Shown: positions 14,220 through 57,589 of the stretch, piece after piece
How the letters are laid out: every line of letters starts with the position of its first letter
Numbering within the stretch: position 1 is the stretch's first letter
Assembly: GCA_039545335.1 (NCBI GenBank)
Contig: BCIN01000001.1
Coordinates: 558,001 to 622,000, forward strand
Length of the DNA: 64,000 bases
Source of the DNA: Kondoa subrosea
Taxonomy: Eukaryota
Reading direction: 5' to 3'
Program-made: the position numbers and the translations under genes
Notes under the pieces: model-generated
Told to the model about the DNA's origin: nothing
The model's database searches: none
The model's input: only the letters and a program-made list of their open reading frames with translations

Positions 14220-15750
14220 ATGTATTCTACTTTTGTGCTTTCGAGCCTTCTCGTCACCAGCAGCGTAGTTGCGCAATTTCTCCAGACAGATTGGGATGTC
14301 GAGGGATCTATACTTCGGACAGACCCAGGAGTTTATGGCTCTGTAGAAGAGTACCACTACTTCTACGATCAATGGCCGTAAGTTCAGAATGTATAATTAC
14401 GTAATCTCATCCATGCCAATAGAATAGGATTGTCTGTTTTGGCTAACGGTCGAATCTTCGTATGCTATACTCGCGGGGACTATGCGTATACCTTGGGCGA
14501 AGTCACCAATAAAACCACTGAAGCAGCTTACCCGAATGAAGAACTCAACACTCCGCCTGGCGGTCTTGCAACAAGCATCAATGGCTATCTATTTGGCAGT
14601 AACTCTACTACTCATTTTATCAATGTGCAAGCGTCAGTCTTCGCAAATCATGGATTTATTCCAGCCTGATGCTGTTACTGAAAGTCTATACACCGATCCT
14701 TTGGGCCAGCTATATGTTTTGGACACAGGAAGACCTCGAATTGGTACCACGTTAGCATATGCTAGTCCAGGCGGTCCAAAATTGGTTCGAATGAATACAG
14801 ATAACAATACAATTGAGAAAGCATATGTAAGATCTTCTGGAAAGGCTGAACAACCGCTTTGCTGACCTGTCCATATTGATATCTGTAGACCTTCCCTGTC
14901 GATGTCCATTACCCCGACTCATACATGAACGATGTTCGCTTCGATCTTTCCAAAGGCGAAGGTGGTATTGCATATATTGTGGACAGCAGCGATGAAGGCA
15001 GAAGTACGTTGTGGTTTCCCTGGTATCTTCTCTCAGAATATCGCTGATCAAGCTCGAGGGAATAGATGGCTTTATCATTCTTGATTTAGGCACAGGCGAA
15101 TCATGGAGGCGTCTCAACGAAGCTCCATCAGTGTTGCGTATCTACAATTCCGTTCCCAGCTATGTCGGCAAACCTTTCTACGAGATCCAGAAGAATCAAG
15201 CCTACATCCACAACAAAGAGGGACTCGATGGTATTGCGCTCAGTGCAGATGGCAACTACATATACTACGCACCCCTTACCAGCAATTACCTGTATCGCGT
15301 ACCAACCGATGTATTGCTGGTCAAGTCTGGAGTCAATGCCGAACAACTGGCCAGCAATGCTGTGCAGAATTTGGGTCAGAAAGGTTCTCAAACGAATGGC
15401 TTCGAGACTGATTCCAATGGACTGTGAGTCTTTCTCATCTCTGCATAGATCATTGGAACAAATCTGACGAATGAGTTGATTTCAGTATTTACATGTCAGC
15501 ACCAGAACAAAACGCTGTCTTCATTTACGATCATGCCACTGGTCGATCTTTACCTTTTATTCGAGATCCGCGCATCCTTTGGGCAGACTCGCTGGCAATA
15601 GGTTTCGACGGATACATTTACATGACAATCAACCAGCTTTACTTCCAGCCGCTGTGGAATAACGGCACGGATTTGAGGCAGAAACCTGGAGCTATCTTAC
15701 GTGCTAAGTTACCGAATGGGGGAAGCAAGGCAGTCGCGGGTCTGAGATAA
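14220..15750 (+). CDS. Secreted major royal jelly protein/yellow family beta-propeller
   Basis: Signal peptide MYSTFVLSSLLVTSSVVA; motifs DQWPIGLSV..NGRIF, LYVLDTGRP, GGPKLV, MNDVRFD, AYIVDSS, DGIALSADG..IYY.PLTS, DPRILWAD, INQL. Confidence 0.88.
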
Positions 15751-18362: not shown

Positions 18363-19602
18363 ATGAGTGCATCTAATGCTCGGAAACCATCTGCTGTGCG
18401 TGCACTGTCTACTTTGTCTATACTCATGTCACCTGATTCATATATGTAGAAGCGGAAACGGGAAGCAGAGAAGCCAATTCAAGCAGAAGACGGTAAGCAA
18501 TCAGGTCAGTCATATGTATCGTCCGTCTCATCTCGGCGCTCTAGAAGAAGATGGAGATACTACTTTGACTATGGAAACAGCAATGGAAGAGATCGCTCGC
18601 GTTTGTGTCCTGCTATATTGACGTTTCCTCGCTTATGGCTTGCATGGTGGATAATGCAGCTACGGACGGAGAAAAATGAATGGAAACTTGCTTACGAAAC
18701 TCTCAACGCTTTGAGACAAACGGAAGCGGAAAAGAACTACACCAACCTTTTAGCTTTGACAGAGAAACGCAAGATTGCTTCTGATGCGCGAACAAAGGAA
18801 TTGATTATTGAGATTGAACGTTTGAGGAAACATACTGCTTTATGGAGGAATGGAATCAGTGTTCTGGATGAAGTCAAGAAACAGGAAGGAGAGTGCGAGA
18901 GGTTGAAAGATGAAGTGAAAGGGTTGAAGAAGGAGGTTGTGCTGAGAGATGAGCTGGTCAAGGCTTCGAAAGAGAAACAGGATAGGGCAGAACAGGAAGG
19001 TGAGAGCGACAATACTGCCCAAGTCAAGCGAATCAAGGCTCACGAGGTATTCAAGTCGCTCAACTGGACAAGGCTTTAGCGTATGAATCAGAACAATCCA
19101 AACAAGCAACAGCACGATTGAAGGAACTGCAGTCGAATCCCATCTCACGAGTAACAAGCAATACTAAGAAGGATCAACAGAACAATAGCAATTCGGAAGA
19201 GATGTACAAGCTCGTCAGCGATTTGACAGGTATAAGCGTAACCAGAATTAAGCCGACGGAAGATGGAGAACAATTTGAGTGTCTTTTGGTTGATTCCAGC
19301 AGGAAGCGAAGGACGAGTGAGTTTGTGATGCTTGACGAATACAGAAGGCTTCTGAAAGCGAAGATAACAGTTTCAATGGTGTTCTCTCTAACTTTGCATC
19401 CTAATGGTGAAGTAACCTACTCGCCGAATCTCGATGCCGACCGTGACAAAGAGCTTTTGGAGATTCTCATGGAACCATACGACGAGCAAATCCGCTTTAA
19501 GTATGCTCAGGTGAGTCTACCGCCTTCTTTACTAGAAGCAGCTGACTCGCGGTACAGTTACAAGCATTCTATCGAAAATTATGGAAATTGCTGTTGACAT
19601 GA
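18363..19602 (+). CDS. CSM1: Monopolin subunit Csm1/Pcs1
   Basis: Coiled coil with LRQTEAEK, then RWD-like C-domain MYKLVSDLTGISVT...FECLL...MVFSLTL...VTYSPNLD...IRF...LQAFYRKL. Confidence 0.75.
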
Positions 19603-19707: not shown

Positions 19708-22700
19708 CTATTCGTGTGATGAATCGAGAGTGGAGACGGTGTCTTGCAAATCGTCAATTAGAGATTTCAGCCTGATGTTGCCCTTCACCTGCATATCGCT
19801 GTAAGCTAAGAGACTTTAGGATTGTATTGGTCACTTACCATCCATTTGTCTATGTAACCCTCGTGCAGTGCAGTTTCCTTCGTCAGCGAGTCCGAGCTTC
19901 CTAATCCAGTCAGCGCAATGACTGTTTGGAACCATGTCAGTTGGTTACATTCAACACAGTCGTAAGTATAGACTTACTGCGAGAATGCGGCCACTTATTC
20001 GCCCGCTCCACTTCACGAGCTTCTTTCGCAAATTCGCAGCCGTCTTTCTTTGGCATACTATAAGCCAAGCTGTCAATCTCAGTGCATCAGGACCGTACTG
20101 CAGACCTACGATACATCTGTCCAAGCTGCGCATCATGTTTAGCGATTTCTGAGAAGCAGTTTCCTAGAAAAGTACATACTCGCATCTGGCTGAAAAGTCT
20201 TGAACTTCTCGAGTGCTTCTTCTCCGTCACACGCTTCGAGAAAGTCGATGGGCTCTCTTTTGACCATAGTGACTAGTATTTTGCGACCAATCGGATTATC
20301 GTCCACAATCAAGACTTTCAGGCGCCTCTTGCCTGACTCTACCATTTCGTGATAAGAGGACATCCTTTTCGCCTGTGGCAATTTTGGTGTGACCAGCCCG
20401 TTTGAATCTTTGTCGAACGCTGTGAGCATAACCTGCTAGCCAAAACGGATACTCACCTTTCACGATCGTACGTTTCATCGCAAATTTTGTGGCATCGGAA
20501 GCGATCTTTGTTTGATCTAGCGCTTTGGTGATTTTCATCGGCAATATTAGACTGAAAGTGCTGCCTTGCCCTACTACGGACTGCACGTTGATTCTATCGC
20601 CTTTCATGCGCTGGACGATATTTTGCGCGATGAACATTCCCAGACCCTTTTCAGAGAGAGGAAATCAGTAGATGATCACTAGAAGCGAAATATATTGGCA
20701 TACTGCACCACTTGAGAAATTGCTCTTCTGCACGAATGGCTCAAATAACACGTCAATGAAATCTTGCTCGATACCCATCCCAGTATCAGTAACCGACTGC
20801 AATATATTCTGTCAGGAAGGACTTTGGAGAAAGAATGAAGCTAACGATATGCATGTCCGTTAGATCCTCCGAACGAGGCATCTGCTTTACCGCTACGGTG
20901 ATTGATCCCGTAGGTGTGTATTTCAGCGCACTGTTTCGTTGTGTATTAGTAATGCCTAGGGAAATTAGCGATGCGACTACTTCGTAATAAGATTAACCAG
21001 CACTCTGAACCCATGATCAGTTCCGGACCGAGTAACAGCGGACAAGCACTAACCTCCTTAGCGAAGCAGGATGTGTCTTGACAAACCACTGACTCGGATC
21101 GCGATCTTCGACGTCGACATACACGTCCAAGCCATCCTTTTTCTGATCGCCAGGAACCTCGAAATCGGCATCAATTTTCACTATTAAAGTCCTTCAGACA
21201 CGGACAAAGCTAAGGGTATATATATACTTACTGTCGCGCATACAACACATGCGCGTTGTTTGCAAAACGAGTTCCTGCAAATCCACTTCGGCCATTTCGC
21301 CTAACGCTTCATTCTCTGGCGCAGAAGTTGACTGCATAATCTTTGAAGACTCAAGCACGTTCTATTGGTTCACGTCAGTGCTTGTTCTTCCCACGCACTA
21401 TCAATCTCGAACCTCTAAGATATCGCGTAAAGCATGCCCACAATACTCTGCAGTGTTGAGCAGACTTTCAGCTGTTTCCAAATCATTCCTTTTCACCACA
21501 TCTCTCAATAATTCAACGTGAGCTAAAACACTATGGAGAGGACTGTGGAAAGGAAACAGCGCTCAGCAAGACAATAAGAGTTTGAGAGCTTATTCCGACT
21601 GACGTTCTTAGTTCGTGAGACACTTGCGACACGAAGCTAGTTTTTGCTGCATCCGCTTTCTCCAATTTGACACGAACTTGACAAGCTAAAAGAATGCAAC
21701 CAATATTCGACAAGAAATTGGCATCTGTCTGCGTATAGACAAAAGAGGTTGAAGTTGTGCCGGCAAGAATGAGCAGATGAGGTCTTCCAGAAGTGAAGAA
21801 AGGGTAAGCTAGGTGAGCAGTAGTGTGAGGCGAAAAAACATCTTCAAAGCCCGAACGAATGCCTTGAGCTAGATTGAAGCGAGTATTTTGATTCTAAAGC
21901 AGGTTGAGCCAAAAGAGAAAGTACAAGCACAAAAGTACAACATACCGAAGCATATAAAGTTAAGAAGTTCTGAATTCGCTCCACCCCACTTCTTGCTAAT
22001 TCGTCAGCTTCAATCTTCATTCGATCCGAAGTATGATGGGAAATGATACTGATGCGACTTTGTTTGGCTGAGGTAGAAGAATGACTAGATTTCGCTGCAG
22101 GCGTGTCCCATAAGACGACTTCAGATATATCAAGTATGACAGCAGATTCGGCGTCGAGCAAATGTGTGGTCAAGTCTAGACCTTGCTTTGCAAAGTCTTT
22201 CTCTTTCCGTAGCGTGTTTGCTCCTCCAGTACTTCCAGACACATTTATAGTTCCAGTTGCAGAAGGTTTAGGGGATGACGAGGTAGATGCAGGTACTCTT
22301 GTGATAGAAGGTAGGACGAGGGTATCGGTCAGGAAATGCGAAATAGCTTCTCGCATGCCAGCTTCTCGATCTCTCCTAAATTGATCAAAATTGCCTTGAA
22401 CCTCTCGACTGCACATTGCGGCTACCTCTTGTAGTAGCTTGATCTGATATTGATTGAGAGGCGGCATGGTGGTATCGTCGACCACGGCCAAAACGCCTAT
22501 AACTACAGCTTCCTTTGTGCGAGAAGCTGCCGAGCTCTCTGCAGCTGCATTTGCGTCTCTACTTAGGAAAATCGGTTGACCGACATCTGTATGACTACAT
22601 AAGGAAAAGCCGTCAACGATACGAGGATTGGCACATACAGCTCTTGATCCAGCTATCTTTGAGCCATGGATTACCAGCGAAGCGCCAATCTCTTTGCACC

Positions 22701-23373
22701 TGTATTGATGAACAATATCAGTGCCGGAAGATATGTGCTTTGAAGCGAGACAAACATCGCGGATCTCCATTCTCTTCTGATCATTGGATAGCATAGCATG
22801 AGAACAGATAGCACATTCGTTGATGACGTCCAGACTTTTCATTTCCTCTGCTCTTCGACCACAAGCAGACGGTATTATTTGCCTGCCGTCTTTGAAGAGG
22901 GAAACGAAAGCGCAACGGCCCTCAAAGATGGAAGAAAGTAAGCTGGTGCATAAATCGAAAGCCGATTTCTGGATTTCACTATCGAGACGATATTGCTGCA
23001 AGAGTCGAAGCTGCTCTTTCTCCATCTTGCTAGGAGGCGCGGGTAGGAATCCATGCTCTTTGTAAAAAGCTCGCAATGATTCGGCGGTCTTCTTTGGATC
23101 CTTGTACCATTCTCCACTGTACATTTGGCTTTCAGCATAAAGGATCAGGCAGCAAGCATTTCATCCTCACGAAAAGGGGCTAGACTCAATAAGTCGGGCT
23201 TCCACATCTCGTTGAGCTTGATTCTCGGTCGGAAACTGGAATTGCGCTTGCTCAGGCTGTGTAACCTCACGACCCTCTTTGTAGTCTTCGAGAAACGCTT
23301 GCCAATCCTTGACCCCTTGATCTTCTCTCTCCTGCTCGGATTTGCTCTTCCCGGTGACGTCGCTGAATCCCAT
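19708..23373 (-). CDS. Hybrid sensor histidine kinase (GAF - HisKA - HATPase - receiver)
   Basis: H-box FVSQVSHELRTPLH, N-box NLITNALKYT, G1 VTDTGMGI, F-box LFEPFVQ, G2 GAGLG, receiver LIVDDNPIGRKIL...TWTDVSMP...IALTG; GAF-like AICSHAML. Confidence 0.92.
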
Positions 23374-24373: not shown

Positions 24374-25532
24374 ATGTCAGCGAGGCGCATCATAGCCAGT
24401 ACCAGCAGAGCGCTATCTACAGAAGTCTCATCAAGTAACTCTGCACCTCTTCTGCCTTCACAATCACTTGGATCTCGCTCAAATCCAAGTTTGTTCTTAT
24501 TTCATGCTGTATGGGCAGACACTCATGCTCAATCGTCTGTCACTCACAGAACCTCTCTCAAAAGTTTTGGAAAACGTTCATGTCCCTCTTCTGAACCTAC
24601 GCACTTCTTCTACCCCATCAAATCTTTTCGTTCCATTACCCGCATCAATCTTTGACCACACCTGTCATCCATCCCTCACTCATTTATTAGTCCGTCAACA
24701 TCTCGCTTCTTTACGTCAAGGTACACATGCCAATAAATCAAGATGGGATGTGAATTATTCCAATAAGAAGATTCAAAGACAAAAAGGAACTGGTCGAGCT
24801 AGAGTTGGGGATAAAGGTTCACCTATTAGAAAAGGAGGTGGAAGAGCTTTTGCTAAAAGTCCAAGAGATTATTCTTTTCATGTACCGAGGAAAATGGTGG
24901 ATAAAGGATTGAAAGCTGCTTTGAGTACGAGATGGAGGAACGATGAGTTAAGAGTTGTGGAGAATGTGGGTATTGATTGGGTTCAAGGAGAAGAAGGAAA
25001 AACTTCGGTCATGAAAAACATGTTGGATCAAAGAGGTTGGCTGGAAGAAAAGTCGGCCATCTTGTTCTTATTGGGTCAAGAAACGCTCAATAGCAAAGAT
25101 GGATCGTATTTGGAACGAGGTGTCAGGAATTTACAGAACGCTGAAGTGATGGATACGATGACAGGTCTGAATGTCTATCATTTGCTTAAACCTGCAAGAA
25201 TTGTGATGGACCTACAAGCGGTTGGAGAAATTTGCGAACGATTCTTACCCGAGGAAGAACAAGAAGCTAGAGCTATGATCAATGAAGAAGAATATCTAGA
25301 AGATTTGGAAGCGCTGGAAGCCCAATCGCAAGCTGAAGATCTGACCGAAGAAATCGAAGCCAGTGATATCACTGCTGCTCAAGATCAGTACGATGCTCAA
25401 ATGACTGATGCAGAATATGATCTGCTCTCTGACGAAGAGAAGGAAGCGTTCGATGGTCGCCGGATGGAGAGGGAATTGGCAATGATGCGAGAAGCGCCTG
25501 TTGTCGAGCAAGTATCAACGAAGAGTACATGA
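24374..25532 (+). CDS. YML6: Mitochondrial ribosomal protein uL4m
   Basis: RQGTHANKSRWDV...QKGTGRARVGDKGSPIRKGGGRAF; Arg/Ser-rich presequence; one intron. Confidence 0.92.
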
Positions 25533-25597: not shown

Positions 25598-27348
25598 ATG
25601 CCCGCAACTCTGTCTCGACCAGCGATGTCTGACTTTCAATTGCCTGATCCTTTATCTGTTTCGTGCCATGAAGGCAAGGAGAATGACTGGTCGCCGTCCC
25701 AGAGCAGCAAGCGCGGCCTTCAACGAGTTACATCACACGGCTCATCTGCTTCCTTGCTTGAATCTGTCGCCGAGAAGGACTCTACATTCCTGTCCAGCAA
25801 AAGTGTTTTATCAGACAGCTACTCTAGCTTAAGCGACTTCTCAATTATTAGACCTGTCAATGCCTTCTCACCTCAATCCACTACAAGTGTCAGACAAAGT
25901 CATTATTCGCCTTCAGCCTCTCGTCAATTAGGTGTATCTAGTTCAGTAGAGCTGGAAGGTTTGGAATTGGAAGTCGCAAGAGGTGATTCCCCCTTTCACC
26001 GATGGGAAATGGCTATCAAACCAGATGAAGGTGCTGAGGTGAGAGAAAGATGCCTTGCGATTCAGTCTTTACTGATTTTGAGGGCTATCTATCTCACAGC
26101 CCACTGGTTATGTTAGCTTGCATGGAGATATAGATCAATCTATAGACGGAGGATATTATGACGAAACAAGAGCAGTCATTGATCCGCGAGACTTTGACGA
26201 CGAGGTAGGTTATTGTGCGGTACCGGAAGTTCCTGTTCAATCACAGTCAGTGCTTGTCATCAATCGTCGTCTAACTGGCTGATCTAGCATGCTAGAAAGC
26301 AAAGTCTACCTCGGCGTTTCTTACAGCAACCTTCTATCCAGCTTCTCGTCAAAGCATCGATCTTCTTTATCGCTTTATCTCACTTCATAAAACCGCTTAG
26401 CCAAGATTCGCAAATCTTGGGGGAATCAGTCGATCCAGAAGACTTAGTCGAAATCATTCCTCTGCATACTCCTGCAATTGAAGCCTCTTCTTTACCTACC
26501 ACTCTTGCTTCTATACCAACGTCGGCGACTACAGAAGCGTTCCTGTCACTCTCACAACACCTTGTCACGCCTTGTCTTATATCTATCGCTTCTCTGGTCC
26601 TCTTTTACTGGTTGAATCGCACAAGCTTTAGCCGCGACAAGAAGACTCGTTTCAGTACACCACTTCCTCCTAAAGTACTGCCTGCCAGCTGTCAAACAAT
26701 CTTACCATCGAAGCCAACAGAATTTGACATTTGTATTTTTGGTGAGCTGCCATAATCAGTTGACCCTGGTCGCTCCTCGATTGATGGTAAACTCACAGGA
26801 GCAAGAGGATCAGGCAAAACAGCTCTCTTTCATCGTCAACTCTTCAATACTATAGAAGTCGACGAATCGAAATCTTCGCGGTCTCGAAGAATAACTTATA
26901 CTAAGAAGGAGTCAACGATCGGCACTACGATACATGATTCTGTTCCAGGACGGTTAAGTCAGGCGAAATATGTCCTTCAGGTATTTAGTTTGGTTGACCG
27001 GGTGAGTATATATATTCGTTAGTAAGAGGAGAAGGAGTTGATGAGAGAGAGTACAGGCAAGCTTGGAATATGTCAAGAATAGTCTACCTCATTTGAGAGA
27101 AGCTATACCGGAAGGAAGCGAGATTGTGCTCGTGGGCAATAAGTTAGATCTAGTTGTAAGTTCAATTTCCTGCTCCAATGCTAAACATGTCTAATGGTAC
27201 ATAGACTCCTGCTTCTAATGCAATCCGACTACAGGCTCGTAAGATGGCGGAATTCGAAGGCTTTCAATACTTTGAAACAAGCGCGAAATTTGGTACCAAC
27301 GTGTCTGAGCTGTTTAGGACTTTGGCCAAGCAGCTGAGAAGTGCTTGA
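25598..27348 (+). CDS. Atypical Rab/Ras-like GTPase domain fused to a long N-terminal extension with two hydrophobic segments
   Basis: Spliced G1 FDICIFGARGSGKT, G4 IVLVGNKLD, G5 YFETSAKFGTNVSELFRTLA; no DxxG G3 in the usual DTAG form; no C-terminal Cys. Confidence 0.72.
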
Positions 27349-29296: not shown

Positions 29297-32200
29297 CTAG
29301 AATTCACCAAAAGCATTGTTCTTGTAATCACTTCGCAAGCTGTTTCTGCTGTCCTGCGGTTGCTGACCTCCTTGCTGTTGACCTCCTTGTTGCTGACCGG
29401 AAGATAATGGAGCTTGTTGACCGTAACCCATGTACTGCTGTTGAGGCTGACCGTACTGATTGTACGATTGCTGCTGAGCGTAAGAAGCCGGACCTGGAAT
29501 AGCGTTCCTGTACTGAGAGCCACCTGATTGTGGGCCTGAATGTTGGGAAGCGAAAGGAGGTCTTTGACCGCCGCTGCCGCCTAATTGAGGAGCAAACTGG
29601 TTTTGTTGTGGATAGTAAGGGTTAGGCTGATAAGCTTGTTGAGGGTAGCCATAAGGATAACCATATTGTTGTGGATAGCCATAAGGAGATGGTTGCATGT
29701 AGCTTTGTTGCTGCTGTTGCTGAGGATGAGAGATCTGCTGAGCGGGAGAAGGAGCGTTTCCAGCTGAAGATGAAGTCTTGCTCGAGTCGTCCTGACCTGC
29801 AGTCCGACCTTGAGATTGGAAGGGAGCGGGAGAGTGACTGCTTGGGTCTTGATAACCGCCATAACCATACTGTAAGTTGCCCGACCCAATTAGTCCCATG
29901 ATTGGATGAACAGCTTCAAGTACTCACCAGTCCTCGCAGACTATCCTGCTGTTGAGGAATACCATACATATGACTGTAATCCTGTTGCTGAGGAGGAGCT
30001 CCGAAAGGACTATGACTGCCTTGAGCCGAATGCAAAGAGTTGAAAGCTGCATAAGCGGAAGAGACCTGAGGTGGTGCTTGTTGCTGTTGCATGCCGCTGC
30101 TCGAGTTTTGCTGCTGGTTCATGGATAAAGCTGGTGAGGGAGCATGACCTTGGAAATAAGGGGATGAAGCCGAATGAGCATCTTGAGCACCTCCACCAGT
30201 AGCGCTCAATGGTGCATAAGGTGATTGAGCTGAAGAAGGTCCTGACGGAGCTTGATAAGGTGAAGACGAATGCTGATCATGATGTTGTACTTGAGCAAGG
30301 TAAGCAGACGAGAAGTTTTGACCAGGTTGTTGCTGGTAAGAAGGAGTAGGTTGAGCATAGGATGGTTGTTGCTGGTACTGAGATTGAGCATAGCTGTGTT
30401 GCTGAGGATATCCTTGCTGCGAGTATTGCTGTTGCATAGGAGGTTGCTGTTGACCCATTTGCTGCTGTTGCTGATGGGCCAAAGTAGCTGCGACTGGGTG
30501 TGAAGTAGGTTGTTCGTAAGAGTTAGGTCTAGCTTCATTGATCGCAGATGGTTGGTAGCTGTGAGGAGTCACCGACATCAGATAAATATATCTTAGATGC
30601 CGCAAGTACTCACCTGTTTCGCTCTTGCAAATCGTGCGATCTGTTCTCATCCTGAACCTGACCAGTTTGACCTTGTTGCTGAGATTGCGAACCAGATTGC
30701 GAACCAGATTGATCGAACAAACCAAGACTGCCGAACTGAACGCCAACGCGATCCATCAAACCTGAAGCAGGAGCTTCCTGTTTCTGAACAACAGGGGATT
30801 GTTTCTTTTGACTACTACCAAAGCCTGGTGGACCTTGTGAAGAGGTAGTATCTTGTTGATGTTGATGTTCCGAAGCTTCAACTTGCGCTTCCAATTGAGC
30901 AGCAACAGGTTGATCTTGATCTTTCTTTGACACAGCAACCGGTTCTTCTTGCGAAGGAGGTGGAGGAGTAGGATCGCGGAGAGAAATAGGGCCAGCAGGA
31001 TCCATACCGGTTGGTGGCATAGCAGTAGCTAGATCAGGTGAACCAGCAGCATGGTGGTAAGTCTGCTGATTAATCGAGGCTTCTTGATTGTCGGAAGAAG
31101 TCAAGACTGTTTCTGCCCATCCTTCGCCCTCCATCGGTGGTGCAGCAGCGGGAGTAGAGGCCCAAGGATCATGAGGTATCATAATGTACTCTTGCTCATC
31201 TTCAGCTTCAAGTTGTTGTGGAACTGGCTCAACGTGTTGAGCTTGCGATTGTGCTTCAGCAGCTGGAGGAGGTAGAGATGGAGCTTGTTGAGCGATAGGT
31301 GCGGCTTTTGGTTTGGGTTGTTCTGCCGGTCTGTAAGATCACATATACTTTCAAATTATGCGACAATTTAAGGAAGCATGATAGCTTACCTAAGCAGAGA
31401 AGCCCATGAACGAGTGGAAGTAGCGGAAGGACGACTAGGTGCAGTTTTAGCAGGTGCAGCTTGAGGAGCTGCAACTGGAGTGGGCGTGACAGGTTCTTCT
31501 GAAGCCGCAGCAGGTACTTCAAGTACATGCGCAGGTTCGGGTGTAGTGGGAATAGGAGTAGAGGCTTGGACTTGAGGAGCAGGCGTTTGCATAGCTTTGG
31601 GACCAGCAGGAAGAGAAGAATCTTTAGAGATCTTTGGTTTGCCCCATCCTCCCCAAGTACCGTTCGTAGATGGCGCCTGTTGGGTAGCAGATGTACCCAA
31701 GACTGGAGTGTTGACTTGAGGAGTATCACCACCAGCTGTAGCAGCATTACTGAACACATCCGTATCAACACCATTTTCCGTCGGAGCATCTTCAGTTTGT
31801 GCGGGCACATCAAGTACATTGTTGGACGCAGTAACGTTGCCGTTGATTACTGGTGCTGGCCTTGTGCTCGGTTGAACATAGCCCGCACCTCTTCCGCCGT
31901 GGAAACCACCCCTTCCACCTCGAGCAGCAAATCCACCTCGACCGCGTGCGTCTATTTGATCATGATAAGCTCGCTTGAGCATCTCTTATCCGATTGGCGA
32001 CTCACCACCACGACCTCGTAGACCACCTCTGCCTATTCCAGCAGAAGATGGGTTAACAGCAGGCATTTGAATAGCAGGCGCAGGAGCGACTTTGCTCTTC
32101 TTCGGTTTGGCTGCTGATTCCCATTGTTGAGCATGACCTGTCAGTATAGGTCAGAATATGACTCCGCATTGTGAGACAAGACTTTTCTGGTATGCTGACC

Positions 32201-55798: not shown

Positions 55799-57589
55799 TT
55801 AAGGAAGTTCTCGTTCACAGATTCTTTCCCACAGTGATTCCCTCCAGTTCATCTGCTCCACAACATCAAAGATCTCTTCTTCCGTTGCACCAATTTGAGT
55901 ATACACTTCATCTGGCCAAACCTCGTGTCCTTCTTCTTTCCTTTTATCCCTCGCTACCACTGCTTTAGCTCCTCGATCCGTTCCATTGAAAACAGCTTTC
56001 AATTCCTCTTGTTCTGGATTAAACAACCTCGCTTCAATCGTTTGCAGTACAGCTAAACCAACTCGAAAGAGGAAAGATTCTCCTTCCAATACTAAGACGT
56101 CGAAAATTCGAGTAGCACAATCTATAGGTAAATGATAGGCGTAGACGGTTTTGAGCCATGGATGTAAATAGAGAGAAGGTCGAATATCGTGGGCAATGAA
56201 ATTGTGGTAGACCTTTCAGATGTTCTTAAGTTCGTGTGCGCGACGCAATACAGGATAGAAAGCTCACTTTTGGCATATGGTCTGCTAAGAGTGTACCAAA
56301 GATTCGATCATATGCGTCTATCTGTCCCGCAGAAGAATATAATTCAGCTAGCTGGTCCGATAAGAGAGTCCTGCACTCACGTAGTCTTGTGTCCCATCGT
56401 AAAAGTATTTCAGAAAGGTATTGCTTATTAAGTTGACCAGCGCAATGAAAGTGTCTTGAATAGGCATTGATATGAGAAGCATTGCAGCGACAAAGGATAT
56501 CCCATGGCTCTGTATGTGCGATCAACCTTCAAGGTACATTTACCATAGAGATGCATCGAGAACATACGTATCTTGGTTTCTCTTTCCAGAAAACAGAATA
56601 AGCCAAACACAGATTCCTCAAATCCTCCCTCATCGGACCATCCTTTTGAAAGAGCTTCAGTTGCGGAAGCGTCCTTTCCAAATCCTCCTCCAATCTTTCG
56701 AGATCTTCTTGAGGATAACGATCTGATTTAAGTAAAGAATTGGCCAAAGCTAAACTCTTTACATAACTTGATTTCCCAACCATGAGTTGATTACCAATAC
56801 AAGCAGACCATAAATTACTTCTATATCTAGCAGGCATACTTCCAGCGAACCAAATTTTCTTTAAAATTGGATTGGTTTTGACTACTTTCCAATTTGGACA
56901 AATTTCTTTTTCCCAAGTTGGATAATGACTTGCTAATAATAAATCTTTGCTGTTCCTTCTTTGATCTAATAAAGAAACTTTCTTTGCTTCCAAAGCTTTG
57001 GATTGAACCAACATGGTTGTGTATTCTTGTAAATGCTTGTTATCTTCTTCTCTAGGTTTAGGTGGAAGATCTTTCGGTCGAGTTCGTGATATTATATCTG
57101 GTAAAAGAGCAGGTGCAGCTTTCTGCAAATCCAAACCGCATAAGCCTAAGTCAGTGACTGGGAAGGAAGAGAACGACTTACTGATTTAGCTAATGATTTT
57201 GCGGAAGCTTTCGCTGAAGGAGTTTTAGGAGCAGCAGTAGGTTTCGAGAAAGAACCATTGGAGTCATTAGCTGATACTTGAGCTGGACCAACATGCGAGG
57301 TTGATTCCACAGATTTGCCCTTGCCTTTATTCAGACCATTTGACACAACAGCAGTAGAAGCATAAGAAGAGGAAGAAGAAGAAGACGGATGAAGAGAGCG
57401 TTCAGGAGATAATGAAATGGATTCGAAAGATTCTTGGACTTGGGTTGGCGTGGAAACCTCCTCTGACACTTGCATCCGCCTGGAGGTAGAAGCCTGAGAA
57501 TCATTCGATATACTTGACTCTGATTCTCGCGCTGCAGGTGCAGGCCTGCTTAACACAGGCGGAGCCCAAGGATTCTCGAATTCGCTCAT
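55799..57589 (-). CDS. TBC-domain Rab GTPase-activating protein (TBC1D12/14-like)
   Basis: TRPKDLPPKPREEDNKH, RSNLWSACIGNQL, DLERTLPQLKLFQ..GP, YSHGISFVAAMLL, RIFDVLVLEGESFLFRVGLA. Confidence 0.87.

Follow-up and report, generated by a model that had tools for sequence, protein, structure and literature searches.

A loosely Rab-like G domain with an eroded switch II behind a putative N-terminal membrane hairpin in Kondoa subrosea

Small GTPases normally reach membranes reversibly by lipid anchors and act as switches. A gene of Kondoa subrosea raises the question of how a G domain of this kind could be held at a membrane, and what it could do there, with no C-terminal cysteine and with most of its main switch element missing. 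The gene lies at positions 25598-27348 of a 64,000-nt stretch of contig BCIN01000001.1 (positions 558,001 to 622,000; assembly GCA_039545335.1). The whole stretch is referred to as the window; all coordinates are those of the window and, unless indicated otherwise, of its plus strand. A previous interpretation made from the DNA letters (the sequence-only reading) had described the product as a transmembrane-anchored, non-prenylated Rab-like (pseudo)GTPase. The interpretation that we prefer, held at middling confidence, is that the gene encodes a hairpin-anchored, guanine-nucleotide-binding and loosely Rab-like protein which would serve as a fixed docking module without switch-II switching.

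The gene model was obtained by chaining the stop-to-stop open reading frames (ORFs) of the plus strand between 25433 and 27348 via canonical splice signals, and it reproduced the earlier coordinates exactly. The six exons resulted in a coding sequence of 1446 nt with an unbroken frame, corresponding to 481 amino acids (aa), from the ATG at 25598 to the stop codon at 27346-27348. The five introns at 26039-26099, 26205-26287, 26742-26798, 27002-27056 and 27156-27204 (61, 83, 57, 55 and 49 nt, respectively) were all of the GT-AG type, and CTAAC/CTGAT-like branch sites were present in most of them. Exon 1 (25598-26038, aa 1-147), defined by its ORF and a GTGAGA donor, encodes a Ser-rich low-complexity tail and gave no Pfam match. 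Exon 2 (26100-26204, aa 148-182) is an acidic segment of 35 codons in phase 0 on both sides; its frame is the sole open one across that stretch of the window, with GT-AG borders and branch-like CTGAT/CTAAC sequences. Exon 3 (26288-26741, aa 183-334, codon 334 contributing only its first base) consists of an open frame of 151 codons, with a stop codon one codon upstream of the acceptor, and it encodes, in this order, a basic stretch, hydrophobic segment 1, an acidic loop, hydrophobic segment 2, a basic linker and strand beta-1. Exon 4 (26799-27001, aa 334-401) extends from the P-loop to strand beta-4 and includes helix 1, a possible switch-I Thr351, the beta2-beta3 hairpin, His-Asp with a degenerate G3 motif and a shortened switch II. 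Exon 5 (27057-27155, aa 402-434) contains helix 3, strand 5 and the G4 motif NKLD, and exon 6 (27205-27348, aa 435-481 and the stop codon) helix 4, strand 6, the G5 motif ETSAK and helix 5. Every feature that the sequence-only reading had listed was found in the sequence where it had been placed.

Relatives were searched for with HMMER, using exon 4 against 1.84 billion protein representatives (E <= 0.001). Seven proteins were retrieved and four were kept as true relatives, with E values of 5e-21 to 4e-8 and identities of 48-67%. The other three (P0002, P0006 and P0007) were dropped, being internally repetitive, matched in 4-7 short stretches over 32-37 query residues and devoid of a P-loop. 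The closest relative, P0001 (436 aa, E 5e-21), is 67% identical over exon 4 (45/67), is the lone member of its 90% cluster and comes from one 31-kb contig of the jgi/lgn/ena sources; P0003 (69 aa), P0004 (78 aa) and P0005 (92 aa), with E values of 6e-11 to 4e-8, are ORF fragments of exon 4. In all four relatives the final Asp-Arg of exon 4 is followed by Val (GTN), which fits read-through into a conserved GT-starting intron at the site of intron 4. P0001 also aligned with the window protein over the N-terminal tail (75/134 identical residues, 56%) and over the hydrophobic region at aa 194-295 (50/101, 50%). It begins at the residue equivalent to Met10, and the true start of the studied protein may be Met10 (25625) instead of Met1. 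No annotated protein was found in word-index protein searches, in which exon 3 gave 739 and exon 6 gave 5 candidates with none scored, and P0001 gave 6799 candidates but matched only itself; none of the 56 pattern matches of the exon-4 alignment in metagenome contigs was confirmed by tblastn, and no paralogue was detected in the window by tblastn of the 481-aa model (best off-target E 2.2). The family is real but small, comprising five sequences, all unannotated.

The sequence-only reading had placed the long extension and the G domain in a single protein. In-frame Met residues occur only at aa 1, 10, 138 and 448, and exon 3, which holds both hydrophobic segments together with strand 1, is free of Met. 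Assuming an AUG start, a product with the P-loop must therefore start no later than aa 138 and contain the two hydrophobic segments. In P0001 the tail, both hydrophobic segments, strand 1, the P-loop and the exon-4 region follow collinearly within one called protein, where strand 1 is fused to the P-loop without an insertion at the site of intron 3. On these two observations the claim of one protein was upheld. The alternative that the locus is an artefact, made either of separate transcripts for the N-terminal and GTPase parts or of a degenerating pseudogene of Rab origin that chance has linked to an open frame upstream, could draw on exon 2, which is unconfirmed by relatives, on the 66-nt gap to the upstream gene and on the failure to find an annotated protein. 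It is highly improbable: all five GT-AG introns keep the frame, strand 1 shares its Met-free exon with both segments, exon 4 is open in four relatives, the N-terminal 330 aa are collinear with exon 4 in one of them, and the opposite strand of the gene contains no ORF of at least 90 codons.

The frame of exon 2 has no in-frame counterpart in P0001, which uses another frame over that DNA. Residues 148-232 of P0001 correspond to 26039-26287 of the window and represent 85 stop-free codons that run across the sites of intron 1, exon 2 and intron 2. Within them, a 20-residue stretch matches the exon 2 DNA of the window with 50% identity, but the corresponding frame is closed in the window. This part of P0001 is either an unspliced call which is open by chance or the trace of a different gene structure; judged by the sequence, it looks like unspliced read-through.

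The G domain comprises 154 aa, from about aa 328, and stands behind a 327-aa extension. Pfam scans and structure-sequence searches were run exon by exon on unspliced translations. Exon 6 matched the Ras profile PF00071 with an E value of 5.2e-6 and 26.6 bits, above the cut-off of 21.6, at model positions 126-161 of 162, and exon 5 matched positions 86-116 of the same model (E 0.0069, 16.4 bits). Since the two exons match consecutive positions in order, they belong, collinearly, to a single Ras-type domain. Only 3 residues follow the end of the model before the protein stops. In comparison with solved structures in PDB, the best natural matches of exon 6 were Rab27A (E 1.7e-4) and Ypt51 (E 5.2e-4), followed by Rab27B, HRas, RalB and Rab1B; the top row, the designed repeat protein 4yxx, was discarded as spurious because it consisted of six weak repeat matches. 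The eight PDB matches of exon 5 were not meaningful, designed TIM barrels being on top and a Rac-like protein reaching E 1.4.

Three of the nucleotide-binding motifs had been called intact, and they could be read directly in the 481-aa protein. The G1 motif GARGSGKT (aa 334-341) lies at 26741-26821 and is split in phase 1 by intron 3 (26742-26798), the splicing of which connects strand 1 to the P-loop; the G4 motif NKLD (aa 429-432) is at 27138-27149 and the G5 motif ETSAK (aa 458-462) at 27274-27288. The pattern GxxxxGK[ST] was present in all three sequences that span it fully, and the fourth, which starts inside it, has GKS. Arg occupies P-loop position 3 in 3/3 sequences covering it. Judged by its motif spacing, exon 4 can still be read as the first half of a G domain, with strand 1, the P-loop, Thr351 at the place expected for switch I and a hairpin ending with His-Asp, where Rabs have Trp-Asp. 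In a manual alignment Thr351 stands at the spacing expected for switch I, and Thr is found in 3/4 sequences spanning the column. The profile match above the curated cut-off (exon 6), together with G1, G4 and G5, places the protein in the Ras superfamily; the G3 signature DxxG(Q) is absent.

At G3, the sequence HDSVPG (aa 379-384, 26933-26950) stands in place of WDTAGQ; Asp380 is kept and the Gly and Gln of G3 are not conserved. The His-Asp pair is invariant in 5/5 family sequences, the next four positions vary with no Gly column among them, and none of the five has extra length after His-Asp. Only 11 residues, without Gly-Gln, separate the G3 Asp from strand 4. From the P-loop Lys340 to aa 403 there are 63 residues, compared with 74 in the Pfam model (Lys placed by eye at about position 12; aa 403 equals position 86), which means that about 11 residues are missing, mostly at helix 2, i.e. 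switch II. The eroded G3 and shortened switch II of the sequence-only reading were thus seen again, and in all five family sequences. The missing DxxG Gly and Gln and the shortening of switch II are therefore ancestral to the group and not a defect of a single copy. In exon 4, 16 columns were invariant in all sequences covering them, and these cluster in the beta2-beta3 hairpin (S.R.T..K, TT.HD) and in strand 4 (VFSL.DR).

With the P-loop, NKxD and SAK intact, the protein would still bind a guanine nucleotide, and with the Gly and Gln missing and helix 2 truncated, the canonical switch-II spring and intrinsic hydrolysis would be gone. By its motif pattern the protein would fall in class II of pseudoGTPases, described as binding GTP without hydrolysing it (Rnd, RhoH), which likewise keep the binding motifs and have lost the catalytic residues. 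In the Rnd proteins and RhoH, however, switch II has its full length and a lipid anchor is retained, whereas the window protein has lost most of helix 2 and would be anchored by segments of its own chain.

A class I pseudoGTPase, i.e. a G domain without any nucleotide binding that acts as a folded interaction module only, is very unlikely. Exon 4 is too divergent for the Pfam and PDB sequence searches, and the only GTPase among solved structures matched by the exon-4 family profile was the GTPase-like domain of centaurin gamma-1, from a family said to be without classical motifs; the match covered 64/67 positions at a non-significant E value of 0.3, and the alignment included the strand-4 motif (VFSL-D/E) and the short region after strand 3. 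In contrast, the window protein has its P-loop Lys and Thr, NKLD and ETSAK intact, the P-loop is kept in the relatives, and such motifs would usually decay after the loss of binding. Centaurin gamma/AGAP proteins are, furthermore, described as multi-domain ArfGAPs, whereas no ArfGAP, PH or ANK Pfam match was found in the window protein.

More weight, though still on the unlikely side, is given to a working GTPase switch with non-canonical chemistry, in which the P-loop Arg (at the place of Ras Gly12) or a partner or GTPase-activating protein (GAP) acting in trans drives the hydrolysis and switch I reports the nucleotide state. The intact G1, G4 and G5, the Thr at the place of switch I in 3/4 and the position-3 Arg in 3/3 covering sequences are in agreement with this mechanism; the RabGAP-TBC gene at 55802-57185 of the window could be counted too, but it is 28 kb away and non-specific. 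On the other side, the DxxG Gly, the contact residue for the gamma-phosphate in the canonical mechanism, is missing family-wide, helix 2 is shorter by about 9-11 residues, and a bulky residue at the position of Gly12 blocks the action of Ras-type GAPs.

If the G domain binds its nucleotide without switch-II switching, as we prefer to think, its route to a membrane has to be considered. Cys residues were found only at aa 23, 278, 317 and 331, and none in the last 150 residues, so that the absence of a C-terminal Cys noted earlier was borne out (last Cys at aa 331 of 481). The lack of such a residue excludes a prenyl anchor, and another anchor is needed. The two hydrophobic stretches reported before were present as well. 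Segment 1, candidate transmembrane helix 1 (about aa 198-216, 26333-26389), and segment 2, candidate transmembrane helix 2 (about aa 274-291, 26561-26614), reached 19-residue Kyte-Doolittle peaks of 1.72 (aa 198) and 1.80 (aa 273), respectively, against the rule-of-thumb value of 1.6 for transmembrane segments. Hessa-type sums, which were obtained by simple addition, were +4.3 to +4.6 for segment 1 and +1.1 (17-mer) to +2.6 (19-mer) for segment 2; the insertion score of the latter appears borderline to acceptable. The equivalents in P0001 behaved similarly, with a Kyte-Doolittle value of 1.72 and a Hessa sum of +4.5 for segment 1 and a Hessa sum of +1.5 for segment 2. The net charge amounts to +4 over the 15 residues preceding segment 1, to -7 within the 56-residue loop and to +4 over the 15 residues that follow segment 2. 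Such a pattern obeys the positive-inside rule for a hairpin whose two ends both face the cytosol. In an AlphaFold2 model of exon 3 (single sequence), helices were predicted at aa 197-221 (predicted local distance difference test, pLDDT, about 80) and aa 262-296 (pLDDT 75-81), joined by a low-confidence loop. Taken together, the sequence features suggest that a two-pass membrane anchor is likely.

The start of the loop (26390-26560, aa 217-273) carries a conserved acidic motif common to P0001, KPLS..SQILG...DPED.VEII. Beyond this motif the loop is poorly conserved, and the model confidence there is low.

In the alternative case the segments would not span the membrane but form amphipathic or monotopic helices or a small soluble core, and the protein would be peripheral or cytosolic. 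This is rather improbable, but it has support in the marginal sums of segment 1 (+4.3 to +4.6, with an internal Lys), the borderline ones of segment 2 (+1.1 to +2.6) and the low overall confidence of the structure model. What speaks for spanning segments is that both exceed the Kyte-Doolittle value of 1.6 and are present in P0001, that the +4/-7/+4 charges obey the positive-inside rule, and that no C-terminal Cys offers another anchor.

The hairpin which we prefer would add to a short series of known cases. N-terminal transmembrane anchoring of small GTPases is known from SR-beta and ARL10 and has been reported for several other Arf-family members. SR-beta resembles the window protein in that a Ras-superfamily G domain is held by an N-terminal transmembrane region, and differs in that the window protein has two segments, a 195-aa tail, a 35-aa linker, a Pfam Ras match and a deleted switch II. 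A very divergent copy of a known transmembrane-anchored GTPase, most plausibly of SR-beta, is extremely improbable. In its favour, the putative anchor precedes the G domain, and the nearest ESM-Atlas feature cluster of P0001 aa 236-426 was SRPRB/Arf with a score of 0.87, which serves as a lead only. However, no SRPRB/Arf Pfam match was obtained at E <= 1 for any exon whereas Ras PF00071 matches exons 5 and 6, and the two hydrophobic segments, the 195-aa tail and the deleted helix 2 are untypical of SR-beta as described.

ARL10 likewise has a long N-terminal extension, the transmembrane domain of which anchors the small GTPase on an organelle, and it has been discussed as a possible atypical or pseudo-GTPase; it belongs to the Arf family and is described as metazoa-specific, whereas the window protein has a Ras/Rab-matching C-terminal half and a fungal-type gene context. 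Rheb-TM of the SAR clade and Miro are comparable in the sense that transmembrane segments have replaced the prenyl anchors of Ras-superfamily proteins more than once. Their transmembrane segments are C-terminal (four in Rheb-TM, one in Miro) whereas the putative anchor of the window protein is N-terminal, and Miro is described with two G domains and EF hands whereas the window protein has one G domain and no EF-hand Pfam match. The sequence-only reading had set the protein apart from Miro and SR-beta. As an assignment this stood, the features of Miro and of SRPRB/Arf being absent; the contrast with SR-beta needed qualifying, N-terminal transmembrane anchoring being already known from SR-beta and ARL10.

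The term Rab-like had to be loosened. Among natural solved chains exon 6 was nearest to Rab27A, Ypt51, Rab27B and Rab1B, and NKxD and ETSAK are present as in Rabs, but HRas and RalB score nearly as high on exon 6. From the RabF1-F5 motifs, given in the source as IGVDF, KLQIW, RFRSIT, YYRGA and LVYDIT, the window protein retains, read by eye, 3/5, 1/5, about 2/6, none and about 1/6 residues, respectively. The RabF motifs are not matched and the Cys tail is missing, so that Rab-like applies in a loose sense only. A true Rab was rejected on account of the RabF1-F5 motifs and the missing C-terminal Cys prenylation motif. The fungal Big Ras GTPases (BRG; TBRG-1 family) are likewise Ras-superfamily proteins far larger than classical small GTPases; they were rejected because, as far as described, BRG keeps G1, G2, G3 and G5 with a poor G4, whereas the window protein has intact G4 and G5 motifs but has lost G3. 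Word searches within a limited body of literature found no described transmembrane-anchored Rab-like fungal protein, which is no proof of absence.

The Ser-rich low-complexity tail occupies about 195 aa before segment 1. It contains, as had been noticed before, an F-x-x-I motif flanked by Ser and Asp, located in the island LSDFSIIRP (aa 78-86, 25829-25855). This island resembles an Atg8-interacting motif and is identical in the 2/2 sequences covering it, the window protein and P0001. The protein has 9 [WFY]xx[LIV] cores in all, that of the island included; because of this number and because the tails are 56% identical throughout, the conservation of the island is weak evidence. A role as Atg8 or autophagy receptor is speculation drawn from the motif.

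The supposedly disordered tail is about as similar to that of P0001 (56%) as the hydrophobic region is (50%). The tripeptide KEN occurs in both tails, at 25673-25681 (aa 26-28) in the window and at aa 17-19 in P0001, and further islands common to both are ESVA..DSTFL, ELEGLE.EV and SPF..WEM.

A mechanism may be proposed for the preferred interpretation of a hairpin-anchored, nucleotide-binding protein. The protein would begin in the cytosol with its Ser-rich tail, about 195 aa long and bearing a few conserved short motifs. The two hydrophobic segments would come next, forming a helical hairpin with an acidic loop of about 55 aa across the membrane, and then a basic linker of 35 aa and the cytosolic G domain. 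GTP or GDP would be held via the P-loop Lys and Thr, NKxD and SAK; a classical switch-II change or intrinsic hydrolysis would not take place, since DxxGQ has lost its Gly and Gln and helix 2 is mostly gone. With no lipid anchor and a built-in hairpin the protein would not cycle on and off membranes. The G domain would thereby provide a permanently placed, nucleotide-loaded docking surface on an organelle membrane, with the beta2-beta3 interswitch hairpin, the best-conserved stretch, as the putative binding face. Regulation might occur via the tail, by phosphorylation, turnover or motif-mediated partners, instead of a cycle of guanine-nucleotide exchange factors and GAPs.

Several points weigh against this interpretation. 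The hydrophobicity of segment 1, which contains Lys, Ser and His, is marginal, and the model of exon 3 had a predicted TM-score of 0.26 and a mean pLDDT of 57, showing helices and not a membrane. Exon 4, with G1-G3, gave neither a Pfam family match nor, as a single sequence, a PDB match, and the N-terminal half of the G domain appears as such by motifs and spacing read by eye; the five exon-4 sequences of the family matched in Pfam only 4_1_CTD (E 0.052) and AAA_29 (E 0.1), by one member each. G4 and G5 were read in the window protein, the sequences of the relatives ending before exons 5-6. Some nucleotide-dependent change via switch I is possible, with Thr351 as a candidate switch-I residue. 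TBC-type RabGAPs provide a Gln in trans, and the loss of the cis-Gln alone leaves hydrolysis possible. Between the stop codon of the upstream gene and the ATG at 25598 lie only 66 nt (93 nt if counted to Met10), and the small size of the family is a further point on this side.

A more far-reaching version of the proposal is quite doubtful. In it the protein would be a founding member of a lineage-restricted family of switch-II-less, integral-membrane Rab-like proteins acting as permanently "on" organelle landmarks; the loaded G domain would present its interswitch hairpin as an immobile docking site, and the phosphorylatable tail with LSDFSIIRP would recruit Atg8 or another adaptor, making the protein a selective-autophagy or organelle-contact receptor with a GTPase fold.

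The surroundings of the gene are ordinary eukaryotic and of the fungal type, with genes for CTLH, Csm1/Pcs1, mitochondrial L4, RING-TRAF, FGGY kinase, RabGAP-TBC, CwfJ and HECT proteins. The gene directly upstream (24396-25532) encodes a mitochondrial-type ribosomal protein L4 (Pfam Ribosomal_L4, E 8e-46), prolonged at its C-terminus by a long acidic stretch, and the untranslated regions of this and the studied gene probably overlap or are very short. The RabGAP-TBC domain gene (55802-57185, minus strand) is divided between two or more ORFs (E 1e-12 and 2.5e-8) and lies 28 kb from the studied gene. Overlapping Gln/Pro/Ser-rich ORFs with poly-Q tracts at 29300-31985 of the minus strand, without a Pfam match, probably belong to a single gene that is split by introns and has a low-complexity product. 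A major royal jelly/yellow-like ORF (14996-15424, E 1.7e-9) and a Csm1/Pcs1 monopolin-like ORF (19004-19594, E 1.4e-8) were found on the plus strand, and a 438-codon ORF without a Pfam match (21847-23160) on the minus strand. Together with the CTLH, CwfJ, HECT and FGGY genes, these ORFs indicate a gene-dense, intron-rich region of the fungal type. The GC content was 42-50% across the window, and no Rfam or tRNA match was found within its 64 kb.

G folds welded to membranes are few (SR-beta, ARL10, Rheb-TM and Miro), and each of them is informative on organelle identity. The protein described here would add to that set a member of the Ras/Rab type, held by an N-terminal hairpin and with switch II deleted throughout its family. 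The reach of the finding is limited to five sequences, none of them annotated, and it concerns an unusual but precedented way of fixing a small GTPase to a membrane in a narrow lineage. If true, the family would represent a natural experiment on the function of a G domain without its main switch element.

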